NCBI GenBank assembly: GCA_001004905.1
Contig: LCRY01000002.1
Coordinates: forward strand, 1,559 to 65,558
Direction: 5' to 3'
Source of the DNA: Parcubacteria group bacterium GW2011_GWA1_56_13
GTDB lineage: Bacteria; Patescibacteriota; Minisyncoccia; Phycocordibacterales; Phycocordibacteraceae
Length of the DNA: 64,000 nucleotides
Made by a program: the position numbers and the translations under genes. Shown piece by piece: positions 14,108 through 63,976 of the stretch; within the stretch, counting starts at the first letter, position 1, and every line of letters starts with the position of its first letter. Below the pieces are notes generated by a model that had not been told where the DNA came from, searched no databases, and was given only the letters and a program-made list of their open reading frames with translations.

Positions 14108-14162
14108 TTGCGCAAGAATTCCCTTATACTATGTCTTCGTGTCCGCACCGAAGATCTGCCGA

Positions 14163-20623: not shown

Positions 20624-20630
20624 TCAGCGC

Positions 20631-30947: not shown

Positions 30948-30979
30948 ATATTACAGTGGAAGCATTTACTATGGTATCC

Positions 30980-32591: not shown

Positions 32592-33013
32592 TCCAAGCAG
32601 AAGATAGGAAATTTGTCTCTCTTCGGATCGGCGAAATAGCGTCTTTTGAGCGTACGATTCGTGCTGACGATGTGCGCGCTTTTGCCGATCTGAGCGGCGA
32701 TTACAGCCCGCTTCATATGGACGACGACTATGCTCGTTCTACGCAATTCGGCGACAGACTGGTGCACGGCATGTTCCTCGGCAGCTTAGTCTCACGCCTT
32801 GTCGGGATGCATATGCCGGGCAAGCACGCTCTTTTGATGAAAGAATCACTTGAATTCAAGAAGCCGGTTCGTATCGGAGACACCGTAAGGATCGAAGGAG
32901 AGATCATGATCGCGAGTCCGTCCACACATATTATTGAACTCGACATTCGTCTCTATGCGGAGAACATGCTGGTTGCTACCGGAAGGGTACACGTGCAGGT
33001 ACGTGATGAATGA
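32588..33013 (+). CDS. MaoC-like (hotdog) dehydratase
   Basis: FADLSGDYSPLHMDDDYARSTQFGDRLVHGM. Confidence 0.8.
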   Translation: MIQAEDRKFVSLRIGEIASFERTIRADDVRAFADLSGDYSPLHMDDDYARSTQFGDRLVHGMFLGSLVSRLVGMHMPGKHALLMKESLEFKKPVRIGDTVRIEGEIMIASPSTHIIELDIRLYAENMLVATGRVHVQVRDE

Positions 33014-33719: not shown

Positions 33720-33720
33720 T

Positions 33721-34506: not shown

Positions 34507-35804
34507 CCCATTCTTCTCAGGAACACTTCACCGATGCCGGAGCGGGTGAGGCAATGCATGCACTCGCGACTGAGCTTTTTCCAATTTGCCGTAGCCTTAC
34601 GGGAGCTGGCGTTCGCGAGACACTACGCATTCTGCAGAAAATTATCCCACTCACGATACATGAAGTACCGAGTGGCACAAAAGTCTTCGATTGGACGATA
34701 CCGAAAGAATGGGTGATTCGCGATGCATACATACTTGACCCAACAGGAAACAAAATAATAGATTTTAAGAAGAGCAATCTACATGTAGTGCACTACTCGG
34801 TGCCGGTCGACACTGACATAACGCTCTCGGAGTTACAAGAACATCTCTACTCACGACCCAATCAACCGGATGCTATTCCATACATCACTTCATTTTACGA
34901 AGAACGCTGGGGCTTTTGTTTGGCACATCGAGAGCGAGAGAAGCTTGCTGAGGGTACTTACCATGTGCATATAGATAGCGACCTCAAGAATGGCTCGCTC
35001 ACGTATGGTGAACTTGTTGTGCCAGGCGAACACAAGGAGGAGATATTTATCTCGACTTATGTTTGTCATCCGTCGCTTGCCAACAATGAACTCTCCGGTC
35101 CTGTCGTCACAACATTTCTCGCGCGATGGATTATGAGTCAGCCGCGACGTTACACCTACCGTATCATTTTTATCCCCGAAACTATCGGTTCTATTATGTA
35201 TTTGTGCCACAATGTTGAAGCAATGAAAAAGCATGTTATTGCTGGATTCAATATGACCTGCGTTGGAGATGAGCGGGCCTATTCGTACCTTCCTTCACGC
35301 CTCGGTGGCACGTTACCAGATCGTGTAGTACATCTTGTGCTCTCGCACAGACATCCTGAATTTATAACGTATTCATTTTTAGATCGTGGTAGTGACGAAC
35401 GCCAATATTGCGCGCCTGGTATTGATTTGCCTGTGGTTTCTGTTATGCGAACCAAATATGGCAGATATCCAGAGTATCACTCTTCTCTCGACAATCTTTC
35501 CCTTATTACTCCAAACGGTCTTGAAGGTACCTATGGTGTGATGAAGGATTGTTTGGAATTGATCGAACGCAATCACCGATACAGTACCACAGTACTTGGT
35601 GAACCACAGATGGGTCGTCGGGGTCTTTATCCGACGCTTGGCAACCAGTATGACTTACACACTCATCGAATGATGGATGTACTTGCATATGCTGACGGGA
35701 AGCACGATCTTGTTGATCTATGCACAGTTCTTGGGATTACACCTTGGGATCTTTATCCAATTATCGAGACGTTACGAGATGCCGGTCTTATAGAGTTGTG
35801 TTAG
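34503..35804 (+). CDS. Hypothetical protein, possibly aminopeptidase-like-domain polysaccharide-biosynthesis protein (COG4310/DUF4910-like)
   Basis: 433 aa, no signature motif identified. Assignment rests only on the recalled co-occurrence of such proteins next to AAC(3)-like genes in glycan loci. Confidence 0.25.
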   Translation: MTHSSQEHFTDAGAGEAMHALATELFPICRSLTGAGVRETLRILQKIIPLTIHEVPSGTKVFDWTIPKEWVIRDAYILDPTGNKIIDFKKSNLHVVHYSVPVDTDITLSELQEHLYSRPNQPDAIPYITSFYEERWGFCLAHREREKLAEGTYHVHIDSDLKNGSLTYGELVVPGEHKEEIFISTYVCHPSLANNELSGPVVTTFLARWIMSQPRRYTYRIIFIPETIGSIMYLCHNVEAMKKHVIAGFNMTCVGDERAYSYLPSRLGGTLPDRVVHLVLSHRHPEFITYSFLDRGSDERQYCAPGIDLPVVSVMRTKYGRYPEYHSSLDNLSLITPNGLEGTYGVMKDCLELIERNHRYSTTVLGEPQMGRRGLYPTLGNQYDLHTHRMMDVLAYADGKHDLVDLCTVLGITPWDLYPIIETLRDAGLIELC

Positions 35805-46083: not shown

Positions 46084-46977
46084 ATGCATACTCCCGAACA
46101 TTCCGGTACGCGAGTGGTGACGGTTGACGGTTCAGACGTCATTGAGTGTACGGGGTGTGGTTTTAAACATGTGATGCCGCTTCCGACGCCTGAGGTACTT
46201 AAGACGTTTTATGAAGATGAATTTTATCAAGAAGAGCGAAAGGACTATTTTAAAGAAGTCGAGGAGGACAAAGACTGGTGGATGCTCACCTACAATCACT
46301 ATTATGATCTGCTTGAAAAGCATACGAAGGGCAGAAAACTACTTGATATAGGGTCAGGCCCAGGGCTGTTTTTGGAATGTGGTAATGCACGCGGGTGGCA
46401 GACACTCGGCTTTGAGCCGTCACCGCGAGCGGGTGAGTACGCGCGAAGTCTCGGTTGCGAAGTGGTGACGGACTTTTTTACCGCTGAACAGGCAAAGCGC
46501 TACGGCCCGTTCGACGCGATTACGCTCAACTTCGTTCTCGAGCATGTACCGAACCCGACAGAACTTATTGCGCAGGCGCGAAGCCTGCTCGCGCCGGGCG
46601 GCGTGCTCTTGGTCGTCTCACCGAACGATTTCAACCCGCTCCAGAAACTTCTGGTCGAGCATCATGGTTATACATCGTGGTGGGTTGTGCCGAAGCACCA
46701 CCTCAATTATTTCGATATCGAGTCGGCTTCCCGCCTTCTCGTATCCCGCGATATGGCGGTGATCGAGCGGGAAGCGACGTATCCCCTGGAGCTCTTTTTG
46801 CTCTCCGGCCGCAATTATGTGGAGCATCCAGAGCTTGGCAGAGTCTGCCACAGTGAACGCAAGGCGTTCGAGTCCGCTTTGTATCGCCATAAGAGCGACT
46901 TAATTCAGAAAATGTTTATTGATTGGGCGAAGCAAGGTATCGGGCGTGAAGTGGTCTCTATTAGCAAAAAAGGATGA
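46084..46977 (+). CDS. SAM-dependent methyltransferase with N-terminal zinc ribbon
   Basis: CTGCGFKHVMP. LLDIGSGPGLFLECG. Confidence 0.75.
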   Translation: MHTPEHSGTRVVTVDGSDVIECTGCGFKHVMPLPTPEVLKTFYEDEFYQEERKDYFKEVEEDKDWWMLTYNHYYDLLEKHTKGRKLLDIGSGPGLFLECGNARGWQTLGFEPSPRAGEYARSLGCEVVTDFFTAEQAKRYGPFDAITLNFVLEHVPNPTELIAQARSLLAPGGVLLVVSPNDFNPLQKLLVEHHGYTSWWVVPKHHLNYFDIESASRLLVSRDMAVIEREATYPLELFLLSGRNYVEHPELGRVCHSERKAFESALYRHKSDLIQKMFIDWAKQGIGREVVSISKKG

Positions 46978-48164
46978 GAAAGAATAAATCTACAATGGAT
47001 TCAAAAAAATGGGTCGTGTGTCTTGGAGGAAGTGATTCAAAGATACCTATCATACAAGCTGTGCAAGACCGCGGTATGCGATGTGCAGTAGTGGATCATG
47101 ATTCAGACAGTCCGGCTAAGCGATACGCCGATTTATTTTTAAACATAAGTATTTTTGATTCGGTAGCCATCATAGATGCGTTGAAGCAAGCTAATATACT
47201 TCATGCAACCGCCTTTGTATTTGCGTACACGTCGTTACAAGAAGGTCAATTATCAGCAAGCCGATTGACTAAGGGACTTAATATTCCTATTAACTTAAAA
47301 GAATCATGGTTGGAGAATTCTTGGAATAAAATAGCATTCAAAAGATTTTGTAGTGCAACGGGCATCACGACTCCAGCGTTTACAGAATCTCTCCAAGGTG
47401 GTGGCACACACATGTTTTTGGAAAGATATGGTAAAGCGGTGTGCAAGCCAATAGAGGGAGGTGTCGGATCAAAGTCTGTTTTTTTTGTTGATATGTTGAA
47501 CGATGAGCAGGTTATTGATAATTCGTGTTTTCTAGAGCAATATATAGACGGTGATCTTTATTCGTATAACGGCATTGCAATAAAAGAGGAAGTGCCGTTT
47601 TCTCTAGTATTGCGTAAATATACACGCACAGACGGTAAAAATATCGCTGGATTTTCTTCGCGCGTGGACAGAAAGCTAGGAGCGCGTATCATTAATCAAT
47701 GTAAAGTCGCCGCTTTATCTATGCATCTACGTGATACGTTTTTCCATTTTGATATTCTCGTACGAGATGGTGTCAGCTATTTCATTGATTTTGGTCTTCT
47801 TTTGGATTGCCGAGTTAACGAGTTGTTGCTATATGGCGGTTTTAATGCGTATGGGTATATTTTGGATGAAGTATTAAACCTTCCTACCATAGAACACGTA
47901 AGATATACTAAAAACGAAACTGAAACAGCCATAGCTTTCGTGTATCCGATTCAAGAAGGTCGTCTGCGCAGTCTACCAACTTCTCTCTCCACCGTACTTC
48001 CTGGGTGCTCTGCATACATCTGGAAAAAAGAAGGAGACTTTGTCAAAGTTGAAGGAACAGTGGAAGATGAAATTGGGTATGTTGTGGGCCGTGATGTCGA
48101 TTGGTCTAAGGTAAAAAATGTGGCGGGCATGCTCGAAGAAGAGATTATTATTGAACCGGTATGA
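46974..48164 (+). CDS. ATP-grasp-fold ligase
   Basis: VCKPIEGGVGSKSVFFV ATP-grasp glycine-rich loop. Rossmann-like N-terminus VVCLGGSDSKIPIIQA. In a low-GC island. Confidence 0.55.
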   Translation: MRKNKSTMDSKKWVVCLGGSDSKIPIIQAVQDRGMRCAVVDHDSDSPAKRYADLFLNISIFDSVAIIDALKQANILHATAFVFAYTSLQEGQLSASRLTKGLNIPINLKESWLENSWNKIAFKRFCSATGITTPAFTESLQGGGTHMFLERYGKAVCKPIEGGVGSKSVFFVDMLNDEQVIDNSCFLEQYIDGDLYSYNGIAIKEEVPFSLVLRKYTRTDGKNIAGFSSRVDRKLGARIINQCKVAALSMHLRDTFFHFDILVRDGVSYFIDFGLLLDCRVNELLLYGGFNAYGYILDEVLNLPTIEHVRYTKNETETAIAFVYPIQEGRLRSLPTSLSTVLPGCSAYIWKKEGDFVKVEGTVEDEIGYVVGRDVDWSKVKNVAGMLEEEIIIEPV

Positions 48165-49390
48165 ATGGTAAGAAACATATATTAATGATTGGCGGAGGCC
48201 TCCAGGAGGTCGAGGCAGTTCGACAGCTTAAGGCCGCTGGATGGACTGTCGGCGTCTCGGATCGGGATTCTGATTGCCCGTGCGCAAACATTGCTGATTA
48301 TGTATTAGAGGCAGACGGTCGCGATCCAGAACGAATATTGCAAGAATTGTTGATTAGAACACCTGACAATCTCCCACGGGTAGTATTTACACTGACAGAA
48401 CTGACCACAACGGTGGCGATATTATTACACGCACTAAAACTGCCAGCTCCATCGATCCTATCGGTAGTGGTGAGTCAATCGAAAGCATTATCGAAAGATT
48501 GTTGGCTACGTAAGGGAGTACGGACGCCGAACGGGGTTGTTGTTTCTGATGCCCAGGGATTGGCATCTATCCCCACACGAAGCGCACCGCCCTATGTTAT
48601 AAAACCAGATGTTTCTTCTGGCGGTAGAGGGGTTGTTTTAGTAAAGTCTGCAGACAAATTATCCGAAGCCGTACGTAATGCTATTGACTGTTCAGCAAAT
48701 AGCCGATGTGTAGTTGAAGAATACATACACGGGACTATTCACGATGGTAATGCATATTTTTCCAATGGCATATTTGTTCCTCTAAGTATTTCTGATCGGT
48801 TCACCGGTGATTCAATTGCGGTCGAATCTGGTGCAATTTGCCCCTCATGTTTGCCACCGAACAAGCAAAAAGATTTTTTCTTTCTTTTTGAAGAATCTTG
48901 TCGGGCATTGGGAATTGAACAGGGTCCCGTTAAAATTGACGCGTTATACGATGGAAAAAATTTTTACGTATTAGAGGTCGCAGCACGTTTGCACGGTCCA
49001 CGCGGTAGTTTGTATTTGATCCCCGCCAGTTTTGGTATATCACTATGTGTACCGGTATTTGATGCGATTCAGAGCAATAGCATGGATATAGAATGGGATG
49101 CGACACGCGTAAAGCAGTTTTGTGTATACGAGGATATCCGAATTGCCGAGCGAGGTGTAATAATAAGTATTGAAGGTATTGAGATTGCTAAACATGAAGA
49201 GGGTATTGTAGATATTCAACTATTAAAAAATATAGGCGATGAGATACGCACACCACACGATTCAAACGAAGTTACTGGGTTTATTTTTGCCGTTGGAAGT
49301 AACGAAATAGAATGTAGAAAACGGATAAAGACCGCTCATGATGTGTTGCACATACGTCTCGTGAATAGGCCGCATACTGAGCTTAATTAA
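48161..49390 (+). CDS. ATP-grasp-fold ligase
   Basis: HILMIGGGLQEVEAV. YVIKPDVSSGGRGVVLVKS. Low-GC island. Confidence 0.6.
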   Translation: MNGKKHILMIGGGLQEVEAVRQLKAAGWTVGVSDRDSDCPCANIADYVLEADGRDPERILQELLIRTPDNLPRVVFTLTELTTTVAILLHALKLPAPSILSVVVSQSKALSKDCWLRKGVRTPNGVVVSDAQGLASIPTRSAPPYVIKPDVSSGGRGVVLVKSADKLSEAVRNAIDCSANSRCVVEEYIHGTIHDGNAYFSNGIFVPLSISDRFTGDSIAVESGAICPSCLPPNKQKDFFFLFEESCRALGIEQGPVKIDALYDGKNFYVLEVAARLHGPRGSLYLIPASFGISLCVPVFDAIQSNSMDIEWDATRVKQFCVYEDIRIAERGVIISIEGIEIAKHEEGIVDIQLLKNIGDEIRTPHDSNEVTGFIFAVGSNEIECRKRIKTAHDVLHIRLVNRPHTELN

Positions 49391-49400
49391 ACATAAATCC

Positions 49401-50567
49401 ATGAAACGTATCGCAATTGTACAAATCGCCCCTTCCGATGTTAAGGGAAGATTAAGGGACTACAATGTAATTCGTCCACTGCAGGAAAGCGGTTTATTTG
49501 ACCATATCGTGTTGGCATATCCTGACCTTCCTGGGGCGGAAATTATCGATGATTTGGCCAAGGAATGGGGAATCGAGTCATTTCGAGGCGATGTAATGAA
49601 TGTGACCCGACGCATTTTGAACTGTGCAAAAAAATACGATGCGCATACTGTGGTGCGAGTGTTGTCGTGGTATTTTTTTATTGATATTGATCTTGTCAAA
49701 CGAATGGTTCGATTTCTCGAAGAAAGCGATTCTGACTACGTGCCTCTCCCTCGTGATTTTGACATCCGGTTTGGCGCTGATGTTACACAAACTCGATTTT
49801 ACGAAAAAATGGATTCTTATTTTAATAAGGACTCGACTCTATTAAAACTATATGCATTTAATCCGTGGGGATTCTGCGAGCTGCACCAGGAATTATTCAA
49901 AGTCAAGGAATTCAAAGATGTTCCAACATATACCGCAAATTATTTTAAACAATTGAGACAGACTATGGATCTAGTCTGGCCAGAACAATGGGATTCACAA
50001 GACACGCCCATAGATCCATACAGAATGGTAATAAAATATAAAAAAGGAAGCGGGAAGCATGCGTTAGATCTTGCTTGCGGTTATGGAATGGGGAGTAATC
50101 TATTGCACGAGAATGGTTTTTGCGTATTGGGTGTAGATATAGATCCTGCTGTTATTACTACGTGCAAAAAGAGATATGAAGAAAACAGCAAGCTTTCATT
50201 TTTATGTGAAGATTATCGCAATCTCTCTTTTCAGAAGGAATTTGACATCGTAACTTCAATCCATACTATGGAGCATGTTCCCGATGATTCCGATTTTCTC
50301 AGTCATTGTCATTTATGGTTGAGAAAAGGCGGCACGCTATTTTTAGAAGTACCTCTTCTGATGAAGAGACCATTTTATGGAATTGGCGAGCCAATTAACC
50401 CAAAGCACGTGAAGGAATACGATCTGAAGGCTTTAAAGACTCTAGTGTCAAAGTATTTCCATATTATCAAAGTATTCGGAGTTACTCGCGGGTATTATGT
50501 TGAGGAGTGCAAAGCGAGAAACGCGGCATTAATTATAGCCACAAAGACAAGAACGGACGGACTGTGA
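49401..50567 (+). CDS. Fusion protein: N-terminal cytidylyltransferase-like domain + C-terminal class I SAM methyltransferase
   Basis: N-terminus MKRIAIVQIAP..VIRPL resembles SpsF-type cytidylyltransferases. C-terminus LDLACGYGMGSNLL...FDIVTSIHTMEHVPDD is a methyltransferase. Low-GC island. Confidence 0.5.
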   Translation: MKRIAIVQIAPSDVKGRLRDYNVIRPLQESGLFDHIVLAYPDLPGAEIIDDLAKEWGIESFRGDVMNVTRRILNCAKKYDAHTVVRVLSWYFFIDIDLVKRMVRFLEESDSDYVPLPRDFDIRFGADVTQTRFYEKMDSYFNKDSTLLKLYAFNPWGFCELHQELFKVKEFKDVPTYTANYFKQLRQTMDLVWPEQWDSQDTPIDPYRMVIKYKKGSGKHALDLACGYGMGSNLLHENGFCVLGVDIDPAVITTCKKRYEENSKLSFLCEDYRNLSFQKEFDIVTSIHTMEHVPDDSDFLSHCHLWLRKGGTLFLEVPLLMKRPFYGIGEPINPKHVKEYDLKALKTLVSKYFHIIKVFGVTRGYYVEECKARNAALIIATKTRTDGL

Positions 50568-50579
50568 TATAACAAACCT

Positions 50580-51386
50580 ATGACTGATCTTGCCCGTAAA
50601 GCCCAAGAGATACGAAGTCATGCGCTGTGCATGATTCATGCAGCGCGTTCTGGACATCCGGGAGGTTCACTTTCTGTCGCGGATATGCTCGCTGTACTCT
50701 ATTTCGATGAACTCAATCTGCGTCCACGATCTCCGCGCTGGAACAACCGGGATAGATTTATTCTTTCCAAGGGGCATTCGTGTCCGGCGCTCTATGCCGC
50801 GCTTGCGATGCGCGGCTATTTCCCGAAGAAGGAGCTCCTCGGCCTGCGCAAAATCGACCATTTCCTCGAAGGGCATCCCGATGTAAAGATTCCCGGCGTT
50901 GATGCGCCCTCCGGCTCGTTAGGCATGGGGCTTTCGCAGGGCCTCGGCATGGCGCTCGGCGGACGGTATCTAAAAAAGAAATTCCGCACGTATGTCCTCC
51001 TCGGCGATGGCGATATGCAAGAGGGAAACACCTGGGAAGCGTTCATGGCCGCGGGATTCCATAAGGTCGATACACTCGTCGCTTTACTGGATGCAAATGG
51101 CATTCAGGGTGACGCACGCGTTGAAACTCAGATGGACTACGAGCCAGTTCTAGAGAAAGTGCGTGCGTTCCGTTGGCATGTTGAGGAGATTGATGGTCAC
51201 GACGTACGGCAGATACGGCGCGCGCTCAAGAATGCACGTGCCCAAAAAGGGAAGCCCTCGTTCATCCTCGCGCGTACAGTGAAAGGCAAGGGAGTGTCTT
51301 TTATAGAAGACCAACTCGCTTGGCATGGGAGTGTGACGATGAAGGACGAAGAACTCGCGCAGTCGCTTGCAGAATTACGCGTATGA
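50580..51386 (+). CDS. Transketolase, N-terminal (ThDP-binding) subunit
   Basis: HPGGSLSVADMLAVLYF. SKGHSCPALYAALA. GDGDMQEGNTWEA. Confidence 0.9.
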   Translation: MTDLARKAQEIRSHALCMIHAARSGHPGGSLSVADMLAVLYFDELNLRPRSPRWNNRDRFILSKGHSCPALYAALAMRGYFPKKELLGLRKIDHFLEGHPDVKIPGVDAPSGSLGMGLSQGLGMALGGRYLKKKFRTYVLLGDGDMQEGNTWEAFMAAGFHKVDTLVALLDANGIQGDARVETQMDYEPVLEKVRAFRWHVEEIDGHDVRQIRRALKNARAQKGKPSFILARTVKGKGVSFIEDQLAWHGSVTMKDEELAQSLAELRV

Positions 51387-52357
51387 AAAAAACCAAACTC
51401 CAATTCTGGAAGAAGGGTGAGAATGTTTCGTTACGCGAAGCTTTCGGGCGTATATTGGTACATCTCGGTAAAATGCGCGATGATTTCGTGCTCTTTGATG
51501 CGGACATCGCCGGCGGTACGGGAGCGAAGCCGTTCGTGACGGCGTTCCCCAAGCGAGTGATGCAATTTGGCATTGCAGAGCAGAATATGATGGCGGCCGC
51601 AGGCGGTTGTGCGGACATTGGCATCATCCCGGTCGTGAGCACCTTTGCCGCGTTCGGCGCAATGCGCGCGCACGAACAATTCCGCACCGCTATTGCGTAT
51701 CCGAACCGCAACGTGAAGCTCTGTTGCTCGCATCTGGGCGTTGATACGGGACCTGACGGCGCGACCGCGCAAATGCTCGAGGACCTTGCGGTGATGCGCT
51801 CGATTCCGGGCGTTACCGTCGTCGTGCCGGCCGATGCCAATGAGCTTATGCTCGCTTTCGACGCTGTGCTCAACCATACCGGCCCAGTATATATGCGCAT
51901 CGGACGCAGTCCCACTCCGGTTATTTCTGATGCGAAGCAGCCGTTTGTCATCGGTAAGGCGACGCGCATGTGTGAGGGCACTGATGCTACTATCGTCGCA
52001 TGTGGCGTTATGGTGGCACGTGCGTTTGTCGCGGCCGACGTGCTCAAAAAACAGGGCATTCATGTCCGTGTCGTGAATCTCTCGACCGTCAAACCGCTCG
52101 ACGAGCGGGAGCTCCGCGCGGCGGCGCGAGAGACGGGAGCAATTCTTACTGCCGAAGACCATAATGTTCGCGGCGGCATGGGAAGCGCGGTTGCCGAGTT
52201 TTTCGCCGAGCATCACCCGGTGCCGATGAAACTGCTCGGCGTTCAGGACCGCTTCGGCAAGTCGGGCGAGGCGGCGGAACTTGCGGAGAAATACGGACTG
52301 ACCGCGCGGCACATCATACAAGAGATTAAAAAACTTATCCGCCGGAAGCATTCCTAA
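51383..52357 (+). CDS. Transketolase, C-terminal (pyrimidine-binding) subunit
   Basis: Start ATG 51383, ATGA overlap. MQFGIAEQNMMAAAGG. 324 aa. Confidence 0.9.
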   Translation: MKKTKLQFWKKGENVSLREAFGRILVHLGKMRDDFVLFDADIAGGTGAKPFVTAFPKRVMQFGIAEQNMMAAAGGCADIGIIPVVSTFAAFGAMRAHEQFRTAIAYPNRNVKLCCSHLGVDTGPDGATAQMLEDLAVMRSIPGVTVVVPADANELMLAFDAVLNHTGPVYMRIGRSPTPVISDAKQPFVIGKATRMCEGTDATIVACGVMVARAFVAADVLKKQGIHVRVVNLSTVKPLDERELRAAARETGAILTAEDHNVRGGMGSAVAEFFAEHHPVPMKLLGVQDRFGKSGEAAELAEKYGLTARHIIQEIKKLIRRKHS

Positions 52358-55102: not shown

Positions 55103-55187
55103 CGCAATGGCGTAGGAAAATTCAAATGATATGGTATTATTTTTCCGGAACGCGCCATAACCGGCACTACCCTTACAGGAGGGCATC

Positions 55188-55397
55188 GTGGAAGATAGGC
55201 GTAAGATCGAAATCCTGCGATTGATTGACCAATACAATCGCGACGACAGCGCGGGTGTTCCCGTATCTCCATTCATCGCGCGGTACGAGGGGACGCTTGC
55301 CAGCGTGAGTGAGAAAGTCGGGGTTCACGTCGAGGAGCTGGACGAGTTCCTGACCATCATGGATAGCGAGTTGCCGAACGATTATCTCACGGGGTAA
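55188..55397 (+). CDS. Hypothetical small protein (69 aa)
   Basis: GTG start preceded by a perfect Shine-Dalgarno AGGAGG at -12..-7 and followed by a terminator hairpin. Acidic, no TM. Confidence 0.35.
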   Translation: MEDRRKIEILRLIDQYNRDDSAGVPVSPFIARYEGTLASVSEKVGVHVEELDEFLTIMDSELPNDYLTG

Positions 55398-55426
55398 AAC
55401 CCGGCAGACATACTGCGGGCACAACC

Positions 55427-55457
55427 GGCTCCTCTCGCGAGGAGCCAAGTTTCTTTT
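55427..55457 (+). terminator. Rho-independent terminator
   Basis: GGCTCCTC-tcgc-GAGGAGCC perfect 8-bp GC-rich stem followed by aagtttcttttg. Confidence 0.45.
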
Positions 55458-55491
55458 GCCCGTCCACGCGGGTTATAGTTATGACGACGAT

Positions 55492-57258
55492 ATGAAAGGC
55501 ACGATACAGGCGCTCCGACAGGCGTTCGGCAGGTACCGCTGGCACATTGGAGCGCTGGTGGTGTTCGGTATACTGAGCCCCCTCCTTGAAGGAATCGGCA
55601 TCAATGCGGTCATTCCGCTCATGTCATTTTTCATGGGCGGCGGCGACGGCGCGACGGATTTCATCACGAATGCGATACGGGGCACGTTCGGTTTCTTCGG
55701 GATACCGTTCAGCTTCCGGTATCTGCTCGCCTTCATCCTCTGCTTGTTCATAGTGCGAGCGATTTCCGTCGTTGTGTTCGGCTATCTTCGCGGCTGGATA
55801 GGCGCGGACTTTCTCGGGAAAGAAAGCGAGGAAGTACTGCGCCGGGCGCTGTTTGCCTCATGGCCGTTCTCGCTGAAGCAGAAGATAGGAACGATGCATA
55901 ACACGCTCGTGCGCGACGTCCAGCAAACGGGAGTTCTCCTGGGCGCGATGGTTCAGGTCATACAATCCTTCAGCGGCTTTCTCATGTACCTCCTCGTGGC
56001 GGTCAATATCTCGCCGGTAATGACATTCTATGCGATAGGTGGCGGAGCCGTTCTGCTGTTCCTTTTGCGGCCGCTCCTTCGCCGTACGGAGCGCATCGGG
56101 CAGCAAACCGCGAGAGTCGAGAAGCAGTTTGCGCAATTCCTGAGCGAGCACATCATCGGAATGAAATCGATCAAAGCCGCGGGAATGGAGCGCGCCGCCA
56201 TCAAAAATGGTACGGCGCACATCCGCCTCTTGCGTCATCTCTCGATACGCCAATCACTCGTCGGCTCGGTGAGCTCAAGTTTTTTCCAGCCGTTCTCCAT
56301 TGTCCTCGTGGTGCTACTGTTCCTCTTGACGTACCACACGCCGACATTCAGCATCATTTCCTTCGCCGCTTCCCTCTATCTGATACAGAAAATATTCGCC
56401 TACCTTGAGTCCGGACAGAACGCCATGCAATCCGTAAGCGGGCTGCTGCCGTATGCCAAGAACATCGCGGAATTCAAACACAATCTGGACCAGCATCGCG
56501 AATCATTCGAAGGAACAAAGCCATTCGTGCTTAACAAGGAACTCGCTTTCCAGAGAGTTTCATTCGCGTATGGCGAGGACAAGCCGATCCTGAGCGGCCT
56601 TACGTTTTCCATACGCGCAGGGGAGACCGTCGGGCTCATCGGGCCTTCGGGCGCCGGAAAGACGTCGGTCGCCGACCTGCTGCTACGGCTCTTCAAGCCG
56701 ACCGAGGGCTCGCTCACGCTCGATGGCGTGCCGAGCGAATCAATATCCCTCGAAGCGTGGCGCAAGAATATCGGTTACGTATCGCAGGACGTATTCCTAT
56801 TGAACGCCACCATCGAAGAAAATATCCGATTTTACAACCAGGACTTGACCATAAAAGACATCGAGAGCGCCGCGAAGCAGGCGAATATATATGACTTTAT
56901 CAAAGAGCTGCCCGAAGGATTCGGCACGAGGACCGGAGACCGCGGCGTCATGCTTTCAGGCGGCCAGCGCCAGCGCGTGGCGCTCGCCCGCGCGCTCGCC
57001 GGCCGTCCCAAGCTTCTCATATTGGATGAAGCGACAAGCGCGCTCGACTCGGCTTCGGAGAAACTCATACAAGAAGCCATCGGCGCCTTGCACGGCAGCG
57101 TAACCGTGTTCATTATCGCGCACCGGCTAAGCACCATCGAACGCTCGGACCGCCTGTTGGTGCTTGAGCAAGGAAAGATCACGGAAGAAGGCGCCCCGCA
57201 GGAGCTTCTCGGGCGCCCGGATTCCTATTTTTACAAATACCACGACCGCCGCGGATGA
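55492..57258 (+). CDS. ABC exporter, fused permease/ATPase (MsbA/PglK-like)
   Basis: Start ATG 55492 (MKGTIQALRQ); the track start 55456 is a TTG. Six TM. Walker A GPSGAGKTSVADLL. ABC signature LSGGQRQRVALARALAGRPKLLILDEATSALD. Confidence 0.9.
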   Translation: MKGTIQALRQAFGRYRWHIGALVVFGILSPLLEGIGINAVIPLMSFFMGGGDGATDFITNAIRGTFGFFGIPFSFRYLLAFILCLFIVRAISVVVFGYLRGWIGADFLGKESEEVLRRALFASWPFSLKQKIGTMHNTLVRDVQQTGVLLGAMVQVIQSFSGFLMYLLVAVNISPVMTFYAIGGGAVLLFLLRPLLRRTERIGQQTARVEKQFAQFLSEHIIGMKSIKAAGMERAAIKNGTAHIRLLRHLSIRQSLVGSVSSSFFQPFSIVLVVLLFLLTYHTPTFSIISFAASLYLIQKIFAYLESGQNAMQSVSGLLPYAKNIAEFKHNLDQHRESFEGTKPFVLNKELAFQRVSFAYGEDKPILSGLTFSIRAGETVGLIGPSGAGKTSVADLLLRLFKPTEGSLTLDGVPSESISLEAWRKNIGYVSQDVFLLNATIEENIRFYNQDLTIKDIESAAKQANIYDFIKELPEGFGTRTGDRGVMLSGGQRQRVALARALAGRPKLLILDEATSALDSASEKLIQEAIGALHGSVTVFIIAHRLSTIERSDRLLVLEQGKITEEGAPQELLGRPDSYFYKYHDRRG

Positions 57259-57290
57259 GGCAGGGCATGCGCAAAAACCGGACGTGGCTG

Positions 57291-57299
57291 TGGTATCAT
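57291..57299 (+). promoter_or_regulatory. Extended -10 element
   Basis: TGgTATCAT, 10 nt upstream of ATG 57310. Confidence 0.25.
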
Positions 57300-57309
57300 T
57301 TCGTCCATC

Positions 57310-59469
57310 ATGGAGGGTAACGGTACGGCTCGCCAGATAGCACGGTGGGTGGCGCTCAGTGCGCTTTTCTTGCTTCCGCTCACGCCGCTTGTCGTCGTGA
57401 ACGGTTTTTTCTTTCCTTTCATTACCGGCAAGGCGTTTTATTTGCGTTCACTAATAGAGATAGCGGTTGCCGCATGGGCGGTCCTTGCGTTCCTTGACAG
57501 GGCATATCGGCCGCGCTTTTCCTGGATCGGTGCGGCGGTCGTCGGCTTCGTTCTCTGGATGTTCGTGGCCGACGCGTTCGCGCTGAATGCGATGAAGGCC
57601 TTCTGGAGCAACTTTGAACGCATGGAGGGATGGGTGCTCCTCATCCACTTGCTCGGATTCTTTTTCGCGGCGAGCGCGGTACTGCGGGTCGAGCGCAAGT
57701 GGCGCGCCTGGTTCCTGACATCGCTCGGCGTTTCGCTTCTCATTTCCGTCTATGCGTTGTTGCAGCTTGCGGGCGTCCTCGCGATACACCAGGGTTCGAC
57801 GCGCATAGACGCATCCCTCGGCAATTCCGCCTATCTCGCCATCTACTTCCTGTTCAGCATTTTCGTCGCCCTCTGGCTCGCGCTCACGGAACAGCGCGCA
57901 TGGCTTAAGTGGTCGCTCATCGCGCTTGCGGTCCTGGAAGGCGTCCTCATCTTCTTTACCGAGACGCGCGGTACGATCATAGGGCTCGTACTCGCGCTCG
58001 CACTCGCGGCGCTTCTCACTGCGGTCACTGCGAGCAGACACATCCGCAGCTATGCCATAGGTGCGCTCGCTCTCATTCTCGTTCTCACCGGCGGTTTTTA
58101 TCTTGCGCGCCATTCATCGTTCGTGCAGAACAACCATGTGTTACAACGAGTTGCTTCCATCTCACTGTCCGACGGCCAAACTCGCTTCACGCTTTGGCGC
58201 ATGGCTTTCGAAGGGGTCAAGGAGCGTCCGCTCCTCGGCTGGGGACAGGAGGGATTCAATCATGTGTTCAACAAATACTACGACCCCTCCCTCTATCAGC
58301 AGGAGCAGTGGTTCGATCGGGCGCACAACACGTTCATCGACTGGCTTTCCGCCGGCGGCGTCCCGGCATTCTTGTTGTATCTTTCGCTCTTCGGTACGGC
58401 CGTCCTGTTGCTCTGGAGAAGCACCGAACTGTCGCGTCCTGAACGCATCGCGCTCACTGCCGCGTTCCTTGGCTACGCCGTTCATAATTTTTTCGTCTTC
58501 GACAACCTTTCCTCGTACCTTTATTTCTTCGCCCTCCTCGCGCTCGTGGATTCGCAGGTCGCGCGGCCCATCACACGACTTGAAACGGCACCCGAAGTTC
58601 CTGCCGCCGACGGCATGGCATATCTGCTGCCCATCGGCGCCGTCGCCGCGCTCACGCTCGTGTGGACCGTAAATATTACCGGTATGCAGACGGCATCCCG
58701 GCTCATTACCGCGCTCTCGTCCTCGAATCTTTCGGATAGCACCGCGATTTTTCAGGATTTCGCCGCGCATCCGACCTTTGCCTCGCAGGAAATCCGCGAA
58801 CAGCTCATCGCGTACGCGGCCGCGGTTGCACAAAGCGCATCGCTGCCGGACGATGCGAAACAGCAAATACTCGCGCTCGCTATACACGAGATGCAAAGAC
58901 AAGTCGTCGCATACCCAATGGATGCGCGTGGGCGTTCCCAACTCGCCTATATCTACCGCGTCGCTGGCGATACCGAGAGCGCTCTAAAGGAGCTCGACGC
59001 CGCCCTCGCTCTTTCTCCAAAAAAGGAACAGTTTCTCGTGGATAAGGGTGTCATTGAGTGGAATACGGGCGACATGCAGGGGGCGCAACGGGATTTCAAT
59101 GCCGCATACGAGCTTGGGCCGCAGTTCTCCGCCCTCGCGGCTTATGCTGCGGCCGGCAACATCGCCGTTGGTGACGTTGCGGTGGGCGATAAGATACTTC
59201 TTGCCGCCTTCGGCACGACGAACCCGACGAACGACATTCTCTCGCTTGCGTATTACCTGAGCAAGAACTGGCCGCGGCTTATCGCGTTCTGGAAGGCGCG
59301 CGCCGCTTCCGCAACGGGTCCCGAACCATGGTTCTCGCTCGCCGCCAGTTACTATGCCGCCGGTGACGCGGCCGGTGCCATAGCAACCTTGAATGCCGCG
59401 GTCGCAAAATACCCAGAGGCCTCTTCCTCCGCAGCAGCCGCGCTCAAACAGATACGAGAAGGAAAATGA
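57310..59469 (+). CDS. Wzy_C (O-antigen ligase / O-oligosaccharyltransferase-like) membrane protein fused to C-terminal TPR repeats
   Basis: ~12 TM N-terminal domain with FFTETRGTIIGL (Wzy_C R-x-G region). C-terminal ~250 aa of TPR-like repeats (ALKELDAALALSPKKEQFLVDKGVIEWNTGDMQGAQRDFNAAYELGP). Confidence 0.7.
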   Translation: MEGNGTARQIARWVALSALFLLPLTPLVVVNGFFFPFITGKAFYLRSLIEIAVAAWAVLAFLDRAYRPRFSWIGAAVVGFVLWMFVADAFALNAMKAFWSNFERMEGWVLLIHLLGFFFAASAVLRVERKWRAWFLTSLGVSLLISVYALLQLAGVLAIHQGSTRIDASLGNSAYLAIYFLFSIFVALWLALTEQRAWLKWSLIALAVLEGVLIFFTETRGTIIGLVLALALAALLTAVTASRHIRSYAIGALALILVLTGGFYLARHSSFVQNNHVLQRVASISLSDGQTRFTLWRMAFEGVKERPLLGWGQEGFNHVFNKYYDPSLYQQEQWFDRAHNTFIDWLSAGGVPAFLLYLSLFGTAVLLLWRSTELSRPERIALTAAFLGYAVHNFFVFDNLSSYLYFFALLALVDSQVARPITRLETAPEVPAADGMAYLLPIGAVAALTLVWTVNITGMQTASRLITALSSSNLSDSTAIFQDFAAHPTFASQEIREQLIAYAAAVAQSASLPDDAKQQILALAIHEMQRQVVAYPMDARGRSQLAYIYRVAGDTESALKELDAALALSPKKEQFLVDKGVIEWNTGDMQGAQRDFNAAYELGPQFSALAAYAAAGNIAVGDVAVGDKILLAAFGTTNPTNDILSLAYYLSKNWPRLIAFWKARAASATGPEPWFSLAASYYAAGDAAGAIATLNAAVAKYPEASSSAAAALKQIREGK

Positions 59470-60479
59470 TCCTACAGGAAAATGTGCTGCTCGCCCCTCT
59501 CACGACATTTCATATCGGCGGGTCGGCGCGCATTTTCATAGCGGCGCGGAGCGAGAAGGATATTGAAGACGCAATAGTGCTCGCTCGCACGCGCGGCCTC
59601 CCGCTCCATGTTCTGGGCGGAGGTAGCAACATACTCGTGCCGGACGCTGGCGTTGACGGCGTCGTTCTTCGCATCCAGCTCGCCGGCGTCGCGTTCCAGA
59701 ATGATGGCGCCGACACACTCCTTGTCGCAGGCGCGGGCGAATTGTGGGATACGGTCGTCGACGCGGTCGGCACACGCGGCATGTTCGGCATCGAGAACCT
59801 CGCCGGTATCCCGGGCACGGTCGGCGGAGCGACCGTGCAGAACATCGGCGCCTACGGCGCGGAGCTTGCCGATGTATTCGAATATGCCGACACGATCGAT
59901 CGTACGACCGGCGTTCATGCGCGTATCGGGAAAAAAGACGCGGCGCTCGCGTACCGCACCAGTTTTTTCAAAAATAATCGGAATTGCATCATCACCGCGG
60001 TCGCGTTGCGTTTTTCGTCGGCCGGCGCGCCGAATATTTCTTACCCCGATCTCGCCCGCGCGCGCTCCGCGGGCGAACCGCTCGCGGCGCCCGCCGATAT
60101 CGCACGCGCGGTGCGCGCTATCCGCGCGAAAAAATTTCCCCGCAATGACGCGGAGGGAACCGCAGGGTCATTTTTCAAGAATCCGGTCGTCTCGCGCGAG
60201 CTCGCGGACTCGCTCCGCGCTCGTTTTCCCGACCTCCCGACTTTTCCGCAGGAGGACGGAAGAGTTAAACTGGCGCTTGCATGGCTTTTGGACCACGCGT
60301 TGTCGCTCAAAGGGTACGCGGGGGGACCAGTGCGCCTCTACGAGAAGCAACCACTCGTCGTTGTTGCGCGCGCGGGCGCGCGTGCGCACGATGTCGAGGC
60401 GCTTGCGCGCCATATTGCGGAGCGCGTGCAGAAAGAACTCGGTATCGGCATCGAGCGTGAAGTGGAACTATTTGGATAA
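59466..60479 (+). CDS. murB: UDP-N-acetylenolpyruvoylglucosamine reductase
   Basis: TTFHIGGSARIFIAARSEKDIEDAIVLARTRGLPLHVLGGGSNILV FAD-binding signature. 337 aa. Confidence 0.9.
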   Translation: MILQENVLLAPLTTFHIGGSARIFIAARSEKDIEDAIVLARTRGLPLHVLGGGSNILVPDAGVDGVVLRIQLAGVAFQNDGADTLLVAGAGELWDTVVDAVGTRGMFGIENLAGIPGTVGGATVQNIGAYGAELADVFEYADTIDRTTGVHARIGKKDAALAYRTSFFKNNRNCIITAVALRFSSAGAPNISYPDLARARSAGEPLAAPADIARAVRAIRAKKFPRNDAEGTAGSFFKNPVVSRELADSLRARFPDLPTFPQEDGRVKLALAWLLDHALSLKGYAGGPVRLYEKQPLVVVARAGARAHDVEALARHIAERVQKELGIGIEREVELFG

Positions 60480-60778
60480 ATTATTTTTCGTACGCTTATC
60501 CCCGACACGCTGAAATGGCATCGCGTATTGTCCCACCATTCACATTTTTAAGCCACATCTCGCCTCTCAGAGCGTCTTGTGCAGATGGAAAAACGTTCGC
60601 GCGCGATGGGCGCAGGACGATGCCATTCAGTATGACGGGGTTATCCACATGTGGCGCGTCTAAGCGCACAAAAAATTTTCTGACGCGGGATAATGAAATG
60701 CAGAAACGTTTGCGCATGGAACCATTCCGCGCACAGACGGGTCGACATATCAGCCGTAAACCTAATTTCGCAACCACC

Positions 60779-60844
60779 ATGGCAAAAAAGCGTAAGGCCG
60801 CGAAGCGAACGAAGAAGCGCAAGGCTGCAAAGCGACGCCGCTAG
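60779..60844 (+). CDS. Putative 21-aa poly-basic peptide
   Basis: MAKKRKAAKRTKKRKAAKRRR, encoded by a ~21-nt tandem DNA repeat and followed 12 nt later by a strong terminator. The upstream in-frame extension (track ORF 60515..60844) looks non-coding. Confidence 0.25.
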   Translation: MAKKRKAAKRTKKRKAAKRRR

Positions 60845-60890: not shown

Positions 60891-60919
60891 TAGACGACAC
60901 GTAGGCGCAGTGGTATAAT
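60891..60919 (+). promoter_or_regulatory. Sigma70-like promoter for leaderless secA
   Basis: -35 TAGACG (60891-60896), 17-nt spacer, extended -10 TGgTATAAT (60911-60919). secA ATG at 60928 is 8 nt after the -10. Confidence 0.5.
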
Positions 60920-60927
60920 CTTTTTCG

Positions 60928-63462
60928 ATGTTGGGACTGTCCAATTTGTTCTCAAAAAATCAATCCGCGGCCTTTTTAAAGGCCGCGGCGCCTATCGTCG
61001 CGGCAACGAACGGGCTTTCCGAGGAGCTCGCCGGGCTTCCGGACGAATCGGTGCGCGCGCGGCTCTCCGAGGTGCGTGTACGTGCGAGAGAAACCGGAGC
61101 AACGCTTGAAACCGATATTCCGCTCGTGTTCGCACTCGTGCGCGAAGCATCCCGCCGGACGTTGCGCCAGCCGCATTTCGACGTCCAGCTCATCGGCGGC
61201 CTCGCTCTGCTTCGCGGAAGGATCGCGGAGATGCGCACCGGTGAAGGCAAGACGCTCGTCGCGACGCTTCCTGCGGTTTTCCACGCGCTTGCCGGCAAAG
61301 GAGTGCAGGTTGTTACGGTGAACGATTATCTCGCGCGCCGCGACGGCGCGTGGATGGGACAGGTCTACAATTTTTGCGGCCTCACGGTCGGGGTCATTAC
61401 GAGCGCGGGTGCCTATCAATACGACGCATCGCACGTGCCGCAAAAGGAAGATACGGAACGCGATGCGGAGGGTTCCTTCAAAGTATTTTATGATTACCTG
61501 CGTCCCGTGACGAAAAAAGAAGCGTACGCTTGCGACGTCACATACGTGACCAACAATGAACTCGGCTTCGATTACCTGCGCGACAACACGGCCTACGACG
61601 CATCGCAGATCGTGCAGCGCGCATATCATTACGCGATCGTGGACGAGGTGGACTCCATTCTGATCGACGAGGCGCGCACGCCGCTCATCATCAGCGGCCC
61701 CTCGGGAGATTCGCAGGATCTCTACGGACGCTTCGCCGATATCGTGCGCAGTTTTGAAGCGGAGAACGATTATACGGTCGACGAGAAGCAGAAGGCGGTC
61801 CAGATAACCGACGCGGGCATGCGCAAAGCGGAGCAGGCGCTCGGCCTGGAGAATCTCTATGCCGAAGGAGGAGTAAAATACGCGCACCACCTGGAAACGG
61901 CGGTACGCGCCAAGGCACTGTTCCATAAAGATAAGGAATATGTGGTGTCCGCCGGAGGCGGGGGCGAAATCGTCATCGTGGACGAGTTCACGGGACGGCT
62001 CCAGCCCGGCCGCCGCTGGTCGGAGGGTCTCCACCAGGCCATCGAGGCCAAAGAAGGGGTAAAAGTGCAGGCGGAAACGCGCACCTACGCGACCGTGACT
62101 TTCCAAAACCTCTTCCGGATGTACGAGCGGCTCGCCGGCATGACAGGTACGGCGCTTTCTTCCGAAGAGGAGTTCTATACCGTGTACGGGCTCGATGTCG
62201 TGGTCGTGCCCACGAACAAACCCTCACAGCGCAAGGACCACGATGACCTCATTTTCCAGACAAGCGTGGGAAAATACCGGGCGGTCGCGCGCGAGGTCAA
62301 AGAGCGGCATCAAAAAGGACAGCCGGTCCTCGTGGGAACCGTCTCCATCGAGGACAACGAGACCGTGAGCTCGTATCTCAAGGATGCGGGCGTACCGCAC
62401 GAAGTGCTGAACGCGAAGAATCACGAACGCGAAGGAGAGATCATCGCCGAGGCGGGCACGGAGGGGCGCGTCACGGTCGCGACGAACCTCGCCGGCCGCG
62501 GCGTTGACATCAAATTGGGCGGCGCACTCGCCACGCCCGACGCGCGCGCCTCGGTCATCGCCAAGGGCGGTCTCATGGTCGTCGGCACCGAGCGGCATGA
62601 CGCGCGCCGCATCGACAACCAGCTGCGCGGCCGCGCCGGCCGCCAGGGCGATCCGGGAGAGACCAGATTTTATGTTTCGCTCGAGGACAAGCTCATGCGC
62701 GTTTTCGCGTCCGAGACGCTGAAGAAGGTGATGGGGCGCTTCGGCATTCCCGAGGACGAGCCGATAGAAAGCGCGATGATAACCAAATCGCTCGAGACCG
62801 CGCAGGGACGCATCGAGGGATTCAATTTCGATTCCCGCAAACAGGTGCTCGCCTACGACGACGTGATGAATACCCAACGCCTCGCAATCTACGCGCGCCG
62901 CCGCGCCGCGCTTACGGGAAGCGACGCGGAAGTGGAGGGGTTGGTGCAAGCGCTTCTCGGCAACGACGAGGCGGCGCGCGCCGCATTTGCAAATAAGAAG
63001 ACCGAATTCGGCGACGCGTTCGTCCCGCATTTGCGACGGCTCGTTCTGCAGGTCACCGACACGTTCTGGCTCGAGCACCTGGAAACCATGGATTACCTGC
63101 GCCGCTCGGTGTCGCTGCGCGCCTACGGCCAACGGGACCCCTTGATAGAGTACCGTCGCGAAGGGCTCGCTCGCTTCCGTCAGCTTGAGGAGAATATCCG
63201 CTCTACGGTCGCCGAGGCCCTGCCGCGCATGATGAACATGGACGATGCGCGCGTCCGGGCGGAAGAGGCGAAAATACGTGCCTCGCTCACCGAAGCGGGT
63301 AAGGAAGAGCAGGGCGCGCAGGCACCGCTCGTGAAAGCGGCCGGGTACGGCAGAAATGATTTCGTTACCATCAAAAAGGGCGGGGAAACCAAAAAACTCA
63401 AGTATAAAAAGGCCGAACCCCTCCTCGCCGAGGGCTGGACCATCGTCCCCGATGCCCCTTAA
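60928..63462 (+). CDS. secA: Preprotein translocase ATPase SecA (short form, no C-terminal Zn-finger)
   Basis: 844 aa. AEMRTGEGKTLVATLPAVFHALAGKGVQVVTVNDYLARRD. DEVDSILIDEARTPLIISG. TNLAGRGVDIKLGG. Confidence 0.95.
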   Translation: MLGLSNLFSKNQSAAFLKAAAPIVAATNGLSEELAGLPDESVRARLSEVRVRARETGATLETDIPLVFALVREASRRTLRQPHFDVQLIGGLALLRGRIAEMRTGEGKTLVATLPAVFHALAGKGVQVVTVNDYLARRDGAWMGQVYNFCGLTVGVITSAGAYQYDASHVPQKEDTERDAEGSFKVFYDYLRPVTKKEAYACDVTYVTNNELGFDYLRDNTAYDASQIVQRAYHYAIVDEVDSILIDEARTPLIISGPSGDSQDLYGRFADIVRSFEAENDYTVDEKQKAVQITDAGMRKAEQALGLENLYAEGGVKYAHHLETAVRAKALFHKDKEYVVSAGGGGEIVIVDEFTGRLQPGRRWSEGLHQAIEAKEGVKVQAETRTYATVTFQNLFRMYERLAGMTGTALSSEEEFYTVYGLDVVVVPTNKPSQRKDHDDLIFQTSVGKYRAVAREVKERHQKGQPVLVGTVSIEDNETVSSYLKDAGVPHEVLNAKNHEREGEIIAEAGTEGRVTVATNLAGRGVDIKLGGALATPDARASVIAKGGLMVVGTERHDARRIDNQLRGRAGRQGDPGETRFYVSLEDKLMRVFASETLKKVMGRFGIPEDEPIESAMITKSLETAQGRIEGFNFDSRKQVLAYDDVMNTQRLAIYARRRAALTGSDAEVEGLVQALLGNDEAARAAFANKKTEFGDAFVPHLRRLVLQVTDTFWLEHLETMDYLRRSVSLRAYGQRDPLIEYRREGLARFRQLEENIRSTVAEALPRMMNMDDARVRAEEAKIRASLTEAGKEEQGAQAPLVKAAGYGRNDFVTIKKGGETKKLKYKKAEPLLAEGWTIVPDAP

Positions 63463-63520: not shown

Positions 63521-63976
63521 CTAGAGGACTTCAAGATTACTACTCGCCTGTGCGAGCTCTGGTGCTGAGATAATTGACCTTATTTCCGCGTCTTGTTCCT
63601 TATTCGTACCAAGCATATGGCGCAGGTCGGAAGTGTGAAGGATGGAAGGAAAATTTCGTATTCCGTTGTAGTCAAGATAACTACTCCAACGATATTTATG
63701 CAGATATTCGAGAGCATTTTTGTGATCGTGTAGGGTGCCCAAGCGCCATTGTGTATGTGTCAGATCCAAAGGATTGAGATGAATGTAGTAGGGGATATAT
63801 CTGAAATGAGAATCTCGCTCTATCAAGACCTTTCTAAATGTTCCTTGCCACAATACGCCCGTACGTCCGTATTTTTCATTGAAATATTTTGCATAGCCCA
63901 TATTGAGTTTTCGCATAAAAAGAGACAAGGACCCATCCCGTACTGGGGAGGCAAGAATGTGGTAGTGATTTGGCAT
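63521..63976 (-). CDS. IS200/IS605-family or REP-associated (RAYT) HUH tyrosine transposase
   Basis: 151 aa. N-terminal MPNHYHILASP (HuH motif). Size and composition typical of TnpA(IS200)/RAYT. Lower GC than the flanking DNA. Confidence 0.7.
   Translation of the reverse strand: MPNHYHILASPVRDGSLSLFMRKLNMGYAKYFNEKYGRTGVLWQGTFRKVLIERDSHFRYIPYYIHLNPLDLTHTQWRLGTLHDHKNALEYLHKYRWSSYLDYNGIRNFPSILHTSDLRHMLGTNKEQDAEIRSIISAPELAQASSNLEVL

Follow-up and report, generated by a model that had tools for sequence, protein, structure and literature searches.

The described systems closest to the protein reported here are the Gram-positive surface-layer (S-layer) O-oligosaccharyltransferases (O-OTases) WsfB of Paenibacillus alvei and WsaB/WsaA of Geobacillus stearothermophilus, which by published description join a Wzy_C domain to C-terminal tetratricopeptide repeat (TPR) motifs and are encoded in a glycan cluster (PMC2943079). 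WsfB-type hosts are monoderm and have no lipopolysaccharide (LPS), and the enzyme acts downstream of an exporter; PglL also carries C-terminal TPR motifs (PMC2943079). PglL (Neisseria), PglS (Acinetobacter), and PilO/TfpO (Pseudomonas) have in common a WaaL-like core and a catalytic histidine, and a published model of PglS has 13 transmembrane (TM) helices, with a cleft formed over its active site by the periplasmic C-terminal domain (PMC12800693). A further Wzy_C enzyme of a monoderm, TacL of Streptococcus pneumoniae, moves a polymer linked to undecaprenyl pyrophosphate (Und-PP) onto a glycolipid acceptor after flipping (PMC5727136). Here we describe a 719-aa protein encoded at 57310-59469 on the plus strand of a 64-kb window (the whole stretch of DNA that was analyzed), which exact protein matches assign to Parcubacteria group bacterium GW2011_GWA1_56_13, a very small, uncultivated member of Candidatus Kaiserbacteria (Parcubacteria). 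This protein, which we refer to together with its orthologs as WzyTPR, is an uncharacterized Wzy_C-TPR en bloc glycan transferase, a known kind of enzyme. What we add is that it is encoded by a class-wide core gene that keeps its place at one end of a surface-glycan locus of hypervariable content.

The first-pass annotation had read the 719-aa protein as a Wzy_C membrane domain followed by a C-terminal TPR array, and both Pfam and structure prediction bear this out. Pfam placed Wzy_C at residues 206-358 (69.2 bits against a gathering score of 31.7) and TPR-family matches at residues 540-605 and 662-714. The AlphaFold2 model was very confident (pLDDT 95.6, pTM 0.91), with 13 TM helices, an external loop at residues 266-340, and then a C-terminal solenoid. 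The membrane core (residues 1-470, encoded at 57310-58719 on the plus strand) holds all 13 helices and has the WaaL (Wzy_C) fold according to AlphaFold2, Foldseek, and profile search. A profile of these N-terminal 470 residues matched WaaL of Cupriavidus metallidurans (CmWaaL; 7tpg_B, E = 1.5e-8) as the sole solved membrane protein, and Foldseek aligned the AlphaFold2 model to the same chain over 453 columns (E = 1.4e-5, target-normalized TM-score 0.63). The N-terminal profile was needed for this match, as full-length phmmer and a full-length profile returned only TPR proteins from the PDB. Sequence and model together thus place the protein, by prediction, in the WaaL-fold Wzy_C superfamily.

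The TPR solenoid is predicted to lie outside the cytoplasm; a cytoplasmic prediction would, by the first-pass annotation's own terms, have refuted its reading. It spans residues 474-716 (58729-59457, plus strand), with 13 helices in the AlphaFold2 model and TPR matches by Pfam, Foldseek, and hmmsearch, and superposes on consensus TPR arrays over ∼255-270 columns in Foldseek. TM13 (residues 432-470) returns the chain to the outside, and the positive-inside rule was kept in 60 out of 60 sequences, with a Lys plus Arg density of 0.22 in predicted cytoplasmic loops compared with 0.06 in short external loops. Helix layout and charge distribution therefore put the N terminus inside, and the TPR domain on the outer side along with the catalytic loop. 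Several polar positions of the TPR domain are invariant or nearly so (E494, E497, Q498, R540, and K572), suggesting a conserved ligand, and we propose that the solenoid may serve as an acceptor- or partner-binding module. Eukaryotic TMTC1-4 O-mannosyltransferases and OGT are transferases with TPR arrays that select protein substrates. Comparison of the C-terminal domain with solved structures placed the TPR domain of OGT among its best matches, although the catalytic folds and donors of TMTC1-4 and OGT are unrelated, making this an analogy only.

The catalytic Arg/His residues expected of a PglL/WaaL-type enzyme are present as well, so that neither of the two refuting conditions named in the first-pass annotation holds. 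At its outer end TM8 carries R220 (57967-57969), and the external catalytic loop (residues 266-340; 58105-58329, plus strand) holds R280, R292, W296, E332, W334, D336, and H339. Conservation within the protein peaks in this loop, with a mean column identity of 0.67. None of the three residues R220, R292, and H339 varies among 60 diverse sequences, and in the 470-residue profile they align with CmWaaL R191, R265, and H313. A weak hhalign alignment with E. coli K-12 WaaL (E = 0.029) pairs them with R215, R288, and H338, which we take to be experimentally essential there. Residue roles in WaaL follow PMC12800693 and general knowledge. Beyond the loop, the invariant acidic residue D398 lies 59 residues past H339; PglS and PglL have an important glutamate 55 residues past their histidine, of which D398 may be the equivalent.

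WzyTPR belongs to a large family, with 2459 cluster representatives (50% identity) at E <= 1e-30, most of the 150 best aligning from end to end at ∼720-790 aa. Identity across the class is 35%-70%, the C-terminal domain is conserved over its full length, and 60 diverse sequences have 30 invariant residues, many of them in loop 266-340 (GWGQENFN...QEQWFDRAHN). Public records of the protein (KKW43464.1 and HCR52276.1) label it either a "putative bicarbonate transporter, ICT family" or a "hypothetical protein." We rejected an identity as the bicarbonate transporter IctB, since TIGR00947 scored 57 bits compared with a cut-off of 366, and the misleading label can thereby be corrected.

Set beside the described enzymes, the 719-aa protein has the architecture of the WsfB type, with Wzy_C and C-terminal TPRs beside a glycan cluster, and, judging from predicted helices and the positive-inside rule, also the 13 TM helices and extracytoplasmic C-terminal domain of PglS. 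It differs from WsfB in being encoded by a vertically inherited core gene fixed next to murB-secA instead of belonging simply to a mobile slg cluster, and no S-layer glycoprotein is known in the Parcubacteria lineage. Its C-terminal domain is a TPR solenoid of ∼250 aa, compared with ∼110 aa in PglS, and unlike PglL, PglS, and PilO it comes from a monoderm bacterium of the Candidate Phyla Radiation (CPR) and lacks a PglL_A or Wzy_C_2 match. WaaL (C. metallidurans, PDB 7TPG/7TPJ; E. coli K-12) has the same membrane-core fold and the three important residues align, but the CmWaaL and E. coli proteins have 413 and 419 aa and neither the 13th helix nor the TPR domain, both of which are found here; the 719-aa protein is thus not a WaaL in the strict sense (∼400-420 aa, no extra extracytoplasmic domain). 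Nor does it have the build of TacL-type ligases (∼400 aa, no extra domain), TacL itself having 397 aa and no extracytoplasmic C-terminal domain (PMC5727136). A C-terminal external domain of TPRs behind 13 TM helices matches protein O-OTases, unlike the ∼400-aa lipid ligases, and this points to a protein acceptor.

We were interested in how the gene is placed in other genomes and compared 80 loci from species-level Paceibacteria genomes, with ∼10 kb fetched on each side of the WzyTPR ortholog; these include genomes labeled Kaiser-, Nomura-, Taylor-, Lloyd-, Yonath-, Campbell-, Giovannoni-, and Niyogibacteria. Downstream from the ortholog lay murB (49 out of 80 loci) and secA (67 out of 80), followed by obg and gatB, so that WzyTPR-murB-secA forms a conserved block. 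The distance to murB was measurable in 41 loci: the genes overlapped in 14, were at most 50 nt apart in 21, and were separated by >1 kb in three. No downstream murB was found in 31 out of 80 loci, some of them on contigs that end too early to tell. Upstream gene content was variable, and glycan-related wherever it could be recognized. NeuB was found upstream in 19 loci and downstream in none, and the upstream islands also hold epimerases, CMP-transferases, glycosyltransferases, and PMT_2 enzymes. WzyTPR identity follows SecA identity (Spearman rho 0.79), which marks WzyTPR as a vertically inherited core gene beside an island that changes.

The exporter encoded in these islands varies in type. 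Upstream sequence of at least 5 kb was available for 56 loci, and in 34 of these we recognized an exporter within 10 kb upstream: Wzx in 20, an ortholog of the ATP-binding cassette (ABC) half-transporter encoded next to WzyTPR in our window in eight, and a Wzt-type ATPase (ABC_tran plus Wzt_C) in six. Polysacc_synt (Wzx flippase) was the commonest Pfam family in the two nearest upstream genes, and Wzx was often divergent and immediately adjacent to the WzyTPR ortholog. Co-occurrence of exporter types was 0, compared with ∼5.9 expected (permutation P of about 2e-4, with phylogeny ignored). This alternation supports export followed by en bloc transfer and speaks against a Wzy polymerase; it gives no support to a specific PglK identity. 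In two Lloydbacteria loci (L031:5704-9420 and L047:6047-9697), a protein of ∼1220-1240 aa is encoded just upstream of the WzyTPR ortholog, with at most one short open reading frame (ORF) in between.

In the window itself, the ABC half-transporter (588 aa; 55492-57258, plus strand) precedes WzyTPR. The ATG at 55492 agrees with the database gene call, and an alternative TTG start at 55456 is possible; the protein exactly matches KKW43463.1 and also occurs in the HCR52275/6 pair of Candidatus Kaiserbacteria. ABC_membrane and ABC_tran domains give it a TM and a nucleotide-binding domain of the exporter type, upholding the MsbA/PglK-type half-transporter architecture that the first-pass annotation had described, and it stands in a glycan cluster with a transferase. 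The same architecture is found in PglK (Campylobacter; lipid-linked glycans), MsbA (lipid A), and HepA (envelope polysaccharide). "PglK-like," as the protein had been called, proved not to be specific. It aligns over its full length to the HepA, MsbA, and PglK models of NCBIfam, with 341 bits against a cut-off of 725 for the HepA family, 302 against 602 for MsbA, and 224 against 1000 for PglK (NF050066). All scores fall far below the cut-offs and the protein is therefore a member of none of the three families; we rejected PglK as a family assignment, the HepA and MsbA models both scoring higher.

From its sequence and setting, we propose that the ABC protein may be the flippase or exporter of a lipid-linked glycan in this genome. 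It might instead be unrelated to the glycan, exporting a drug, peptide, or lipid, with the flippase encoded elsewhere or identical to a membrane protein at 20592-22433. The lack of any NCBIfam match at cut-off, best PDB matches to multidrug exporters (ABCB1, BmrA, and MsbA), and absence from most related loci all fit such an unrelated role, as does the 389-nt gap (55103-55491, with only one 69-aa ORF and a terminator-like hairpin) that separates the gene from the last long gene of the island. Yet orthologs (42%-76% identity) occur in 10 out of 80 loci, always within the glycan island on the upstream side of WzyTPR and not once on its downstream side, and none of these loci also carries Wzx or Wzt. 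HepA, the highest-scoring family, is itself an envelope-polysaccharide exporter, and no other flippase was recognizable in the window: all long plus-strand ORFs were free of Wzx, Wzm/Wzt, and LPS-core genes, and a tblastn search with Wzx and Wzt queries taken from related loci was also empty. We consider an unrelated exporter rather unlikely.

The two genes had been taken for a two-gene unit, set off by a terminator and a probable promoter at the end of the biosynthetic genes, and for a flip-and-transfer pair. Part of this stands. A terminator-like hairpin was found by consensus scan at 55427-55446 (plus strand; 8-bp stem with six GC pairs, then a T-rich tail). It comes after a 69-aa ORF that lies unannotated between the island and the ABC gene (55188-55397, plus strand; read from the sequence, with a GTG start and AGGAGG 5 nt upstream), and so does not simply mark the end of the biosynthetic genes. 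This ORF had no Pfam or NCBIfam match and no homolog in the 80 related loci. The promoter did not hold up, since a sigma-70 scan found none near 55.4 kb, nor before either the ABC gene or the 719-aa gene; only isolated -10-like hexamers are visible, and a lone TATAGT lies 12 nt ahead of the ABC ATG. At its 3' end the unit is open. The stop codon of WzyTPR and the start of murB (UDP-N-acetylenolpyruvoylglucosamine reductase; 59466-60479, plus strand; FAD_binding_4 and MurB_C domains) share 4 nt (59466-59469), making the unit at least ABC-WzyTPR-murB, and the next promoter-like site downstream is at 60891-60919, ahead of secA. The conserved operon partner of WzyTPR is therefore murB and not the ABC gene. 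As for the pair, a context of export followed by transfer is supported by the 34 out of 56 loci with an exporter, whereas the ABC protein as a fixed partner is not, being present in only eight.

We propose that WzyTPR is the conserved terminal transferase of the Paceibacteria surface-glycan pathway, acting through the following mechanism and most likely on a protein, and we give this proposal an even chance. Enzymes of the variable island would build a glycan on Und-PP, here with ∼48 kb of genes and a heavily modified nonulosonic acid. The island's own exporter would bring the glycan to the outer side of the membrane, this being the ABC protein (55492-57258) in our window and Wzx or Wzm/Wzt elsewhere. 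The WaaL-fold core would then bind the Und-PP-glycan through R220 and R292 and, with H339 as the catalytic residue, pass it en bloc to an acceptor that the TPR domain holds outside the cytoplasm. The acceptor would most likely be a secreted or surface protein, for example, an S-layer protein or type IV pilin, because the organism has no LPS. By analogy with the described enzymes we thus favor an O-OTase of the WsfB/PglL/PglS kind, and the architecture makes O-linked glycosylation of a protein its most likely reaction. The first-pass annotation had put forward a general O-OTase role as an attractive alternative to a WaaL role, and we agree: the Parcubacteria lineage is reported to have no lipid A/LPS genes, which renders a WaaL role implausible and means that lipid A-core, the acceptor of WaaL, is not expected to be the acceptor here. 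One Parcubacterium has been reported without lpxC and kdsA but with peptidoglycan and type IV pili (PMC5220378). In Saccharibacteria, pilin O-glycosylation has so far been predicted only (PMC11623550).

Several observations weigh against a protein O-OTase fed by an island exporter. No acceptor was identified, and no Parcubacterium has, to our knowledge, been shown to make a glycoprotein. TPR domains are also known as scaffolds in polysaccharide export and as binding partners of cell-wall synthases, so that their presence is no proof of a protein substrate, and the tight murB coupling hints at a connection with the cell wall for which an O-OTase gives no explanation. Pfam matches in the 719-aa protein at E <= 0.01 were confined to Wzy_C and TPR families, with no match to PglL_A or Wzy_C_2, which puts the protein outside the proteobacterial PglL/PglS clade. 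On the export side, the ABC sequence is indistinguishable from other B-family exporters, and no exporter was recognized within 10 kb upstream in 22 out of the 56 loci. Finally, none of the long ORFs of the 64-kb window encodes an initiating phosphoglycosyltransferase (Bac_transf or MraY/WecA type), which leaves the first step of lipid-linked assembly to a gene elsewhere or to an unrecognized protein.

Other acceptors have to be weighed. WzyTPR could be a glycolipid ligase that moves an Und-PP-linked polymer to a membrane glycolipid, yielding a product resembling lipoteichoic acid or a lipoglycan, with the TPR domain used for regulation or partner binding. It would then parallel TacL, or a WaaL with a lipid acceptor other than LPS. 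A monoderm Wzy_C protein, TacL carries out exactly such a transfer (PMC5727136), WaaL has the same core fold and Arg/Arg/His set, and a conserved core gene is what one would expect of a basic envelope component. However, known lipid-acceptor ligases have ∼400 aa and neither a 13th TM helix nor a C-terminal external domain, and the external domain of the 719-aa family is conserved along its whole length. We regard a glycolipid ligase as fairly improbable.

A link to the cell wall seems less probable still. WzyTPR might ligate the glycan to peptidoglycan or lipid II, or form a complex with wall synthases through its TPR domain. Such a role would account for the fact that the gene is translationally coupled to murB, with a 4-nt overlap here and an overlap in 14 out of 41 loci; murD and murC flank the other side of our island, and it is general knowledge that the envelope TPR proteins LpoA and CpoB bind peptidoglycan synthases. 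No Wzy_C enzyme with a peptidoglycan acceptor is known, however, and LCP proteins generally fill that role. The linkage to murB is moreover lost in many loci (the three gaps >1 kb and the loci without a downstream murB match mentioned above), and murC and murD were near the ortholog in none of the 80. We think it equally doubtful that WzyTPR is a class-wide Paceibacteria envelope ligase, cotranslated with MurB, that uses its TPRs to place island glycans on peptidoglycan, lipid II, or another conserved wall component. Were this true, it would constitute a WaaL-fold, non-LCP route of wall-glycopolymer attachment and would explain how Paceibacteria build their still undefined cell envelope.

Least probable, and in our judgment very unlikely, is a Wzy-type polymerase that polymerizes Wzx-flipped repeat units and ligates nothing: although some polymerases have a Wzy_C domain and a divergent wzx is the immediate upstream neighbor in many loci, polymerases are (from general knowledge) repeat-unit specific and highly variable, whereas this family is vertically inherited and keeps its 35%-70% identity and 30 invariant residues independently of the changing islands, pairs also with Wzt-type and MsbA-type ABC exporters on routes that need no Wzy, and has an invariant histidine aligned with the essential histidine of WaaL, a feature of ligases and OTases. 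A conserved WaaL-fold enzyme that meets changing islands and three export routes behaves like WaaL and the O-OTases and unlike a Wzy polymerase.

WzyTPR matters beyond this genome. The cell envelope of CPR/Patescibacteria is essentially undescribed, and our literature search found nothing relevant on O-antigen ligase in Parcubacteria or Patescibacteria. CPR bacteria live attached to other cells, and their surface molecules therefore probably decide host recognition and phage sensitivity. The position of WzyTPR upstream of murB-secA provides a landmark with which surface-glycan loci can be found and typed in thousands of Parcubacteria metagenome-assembled genomes. As a single gene, WzyTPR can be tested in E. 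coli glycoengineering strains, with no need to cultivate the organism, and it is possibly a new O-OTase with relaxed glycan specificity for bioconjugate production.

The whole 64-kb window is a single strand-biased gene block. The left end holds murD and murC (568-3215), followed before the island by genes that domain scans identified as an RsmI-like methylase, a VirD4-like ATPase, and comEA. The glycan biosynthesis island itself (∼48 kb; 6756-55102, plus strand) was delineated by Pfam scans and is the presumed supplier of the lipid-linked glycan. It encodes GT4 and GT2 glycosyltransferases together with one PMT_2 GT-C enzyme, many methyltransferases, GDP-mannose dehydratase, and short-chain dehydrogenases. 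A nonulosonic-acid pathway is represented by a PseB-like dehydratase, two DegT aminotransferases, NeuB, and a CMP-transferase. Between 46974 and 54319, three LAL-type ATP-grasp ligases, a split transketolase (50580-52357), and methyltransferases adjoin NeuB and the CMP-transferase, a gene content that suggests a nonulosonic acid with unusual decoration. GC content dips inside the island to 0.47 at 30000-35800 and to 0.435 at 46084-50567, compared with about 0.55-0.61 elsewhere, which suggests a mosaic island, parts of which were acquired horizontally. The island also splits murD/murC on its left from murB on its right by ∼48 kb.

Two membrane proteins of the island merit mention. The PMT_2 (GT-C) glycosyltransferase is encoded at 13956-15584 on the plus strand. 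In seven related loci, the same family occurs within five genes upstream of the WzyTPR ortholog (e.g., L072:8521-9921 and L075:8754-10022), and in two it is directly upstream; this placement hints at a second external glycosylation step. The other is a 613-aa protein (20592-22433, plus strand) with at least seven hydrophobic segments, to which Pfam (E <= 5), NCBIfam, PDB sequences, hhalign against the Wzy_C profile, and BLASTP against the PMT_2 protein gave no identity. It could be an unrecognized polymerase, flippase, or GT-C enzyme of the island.

On the right-hand side, secA (60928-63462, plus strand) marks the conserved downstream housekeeping block. The spacer between murB and secA contains a putative gene, a 109-aa ORF (60515-60844, plus strand) with a very Lys/Arg-rich tail (KKRKAAKRTKKRKAAKRRR). 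Directly past secA, at the end of the window, lies a fragment of an IS200-like Y1 transposase (63521-63976, minus strand).

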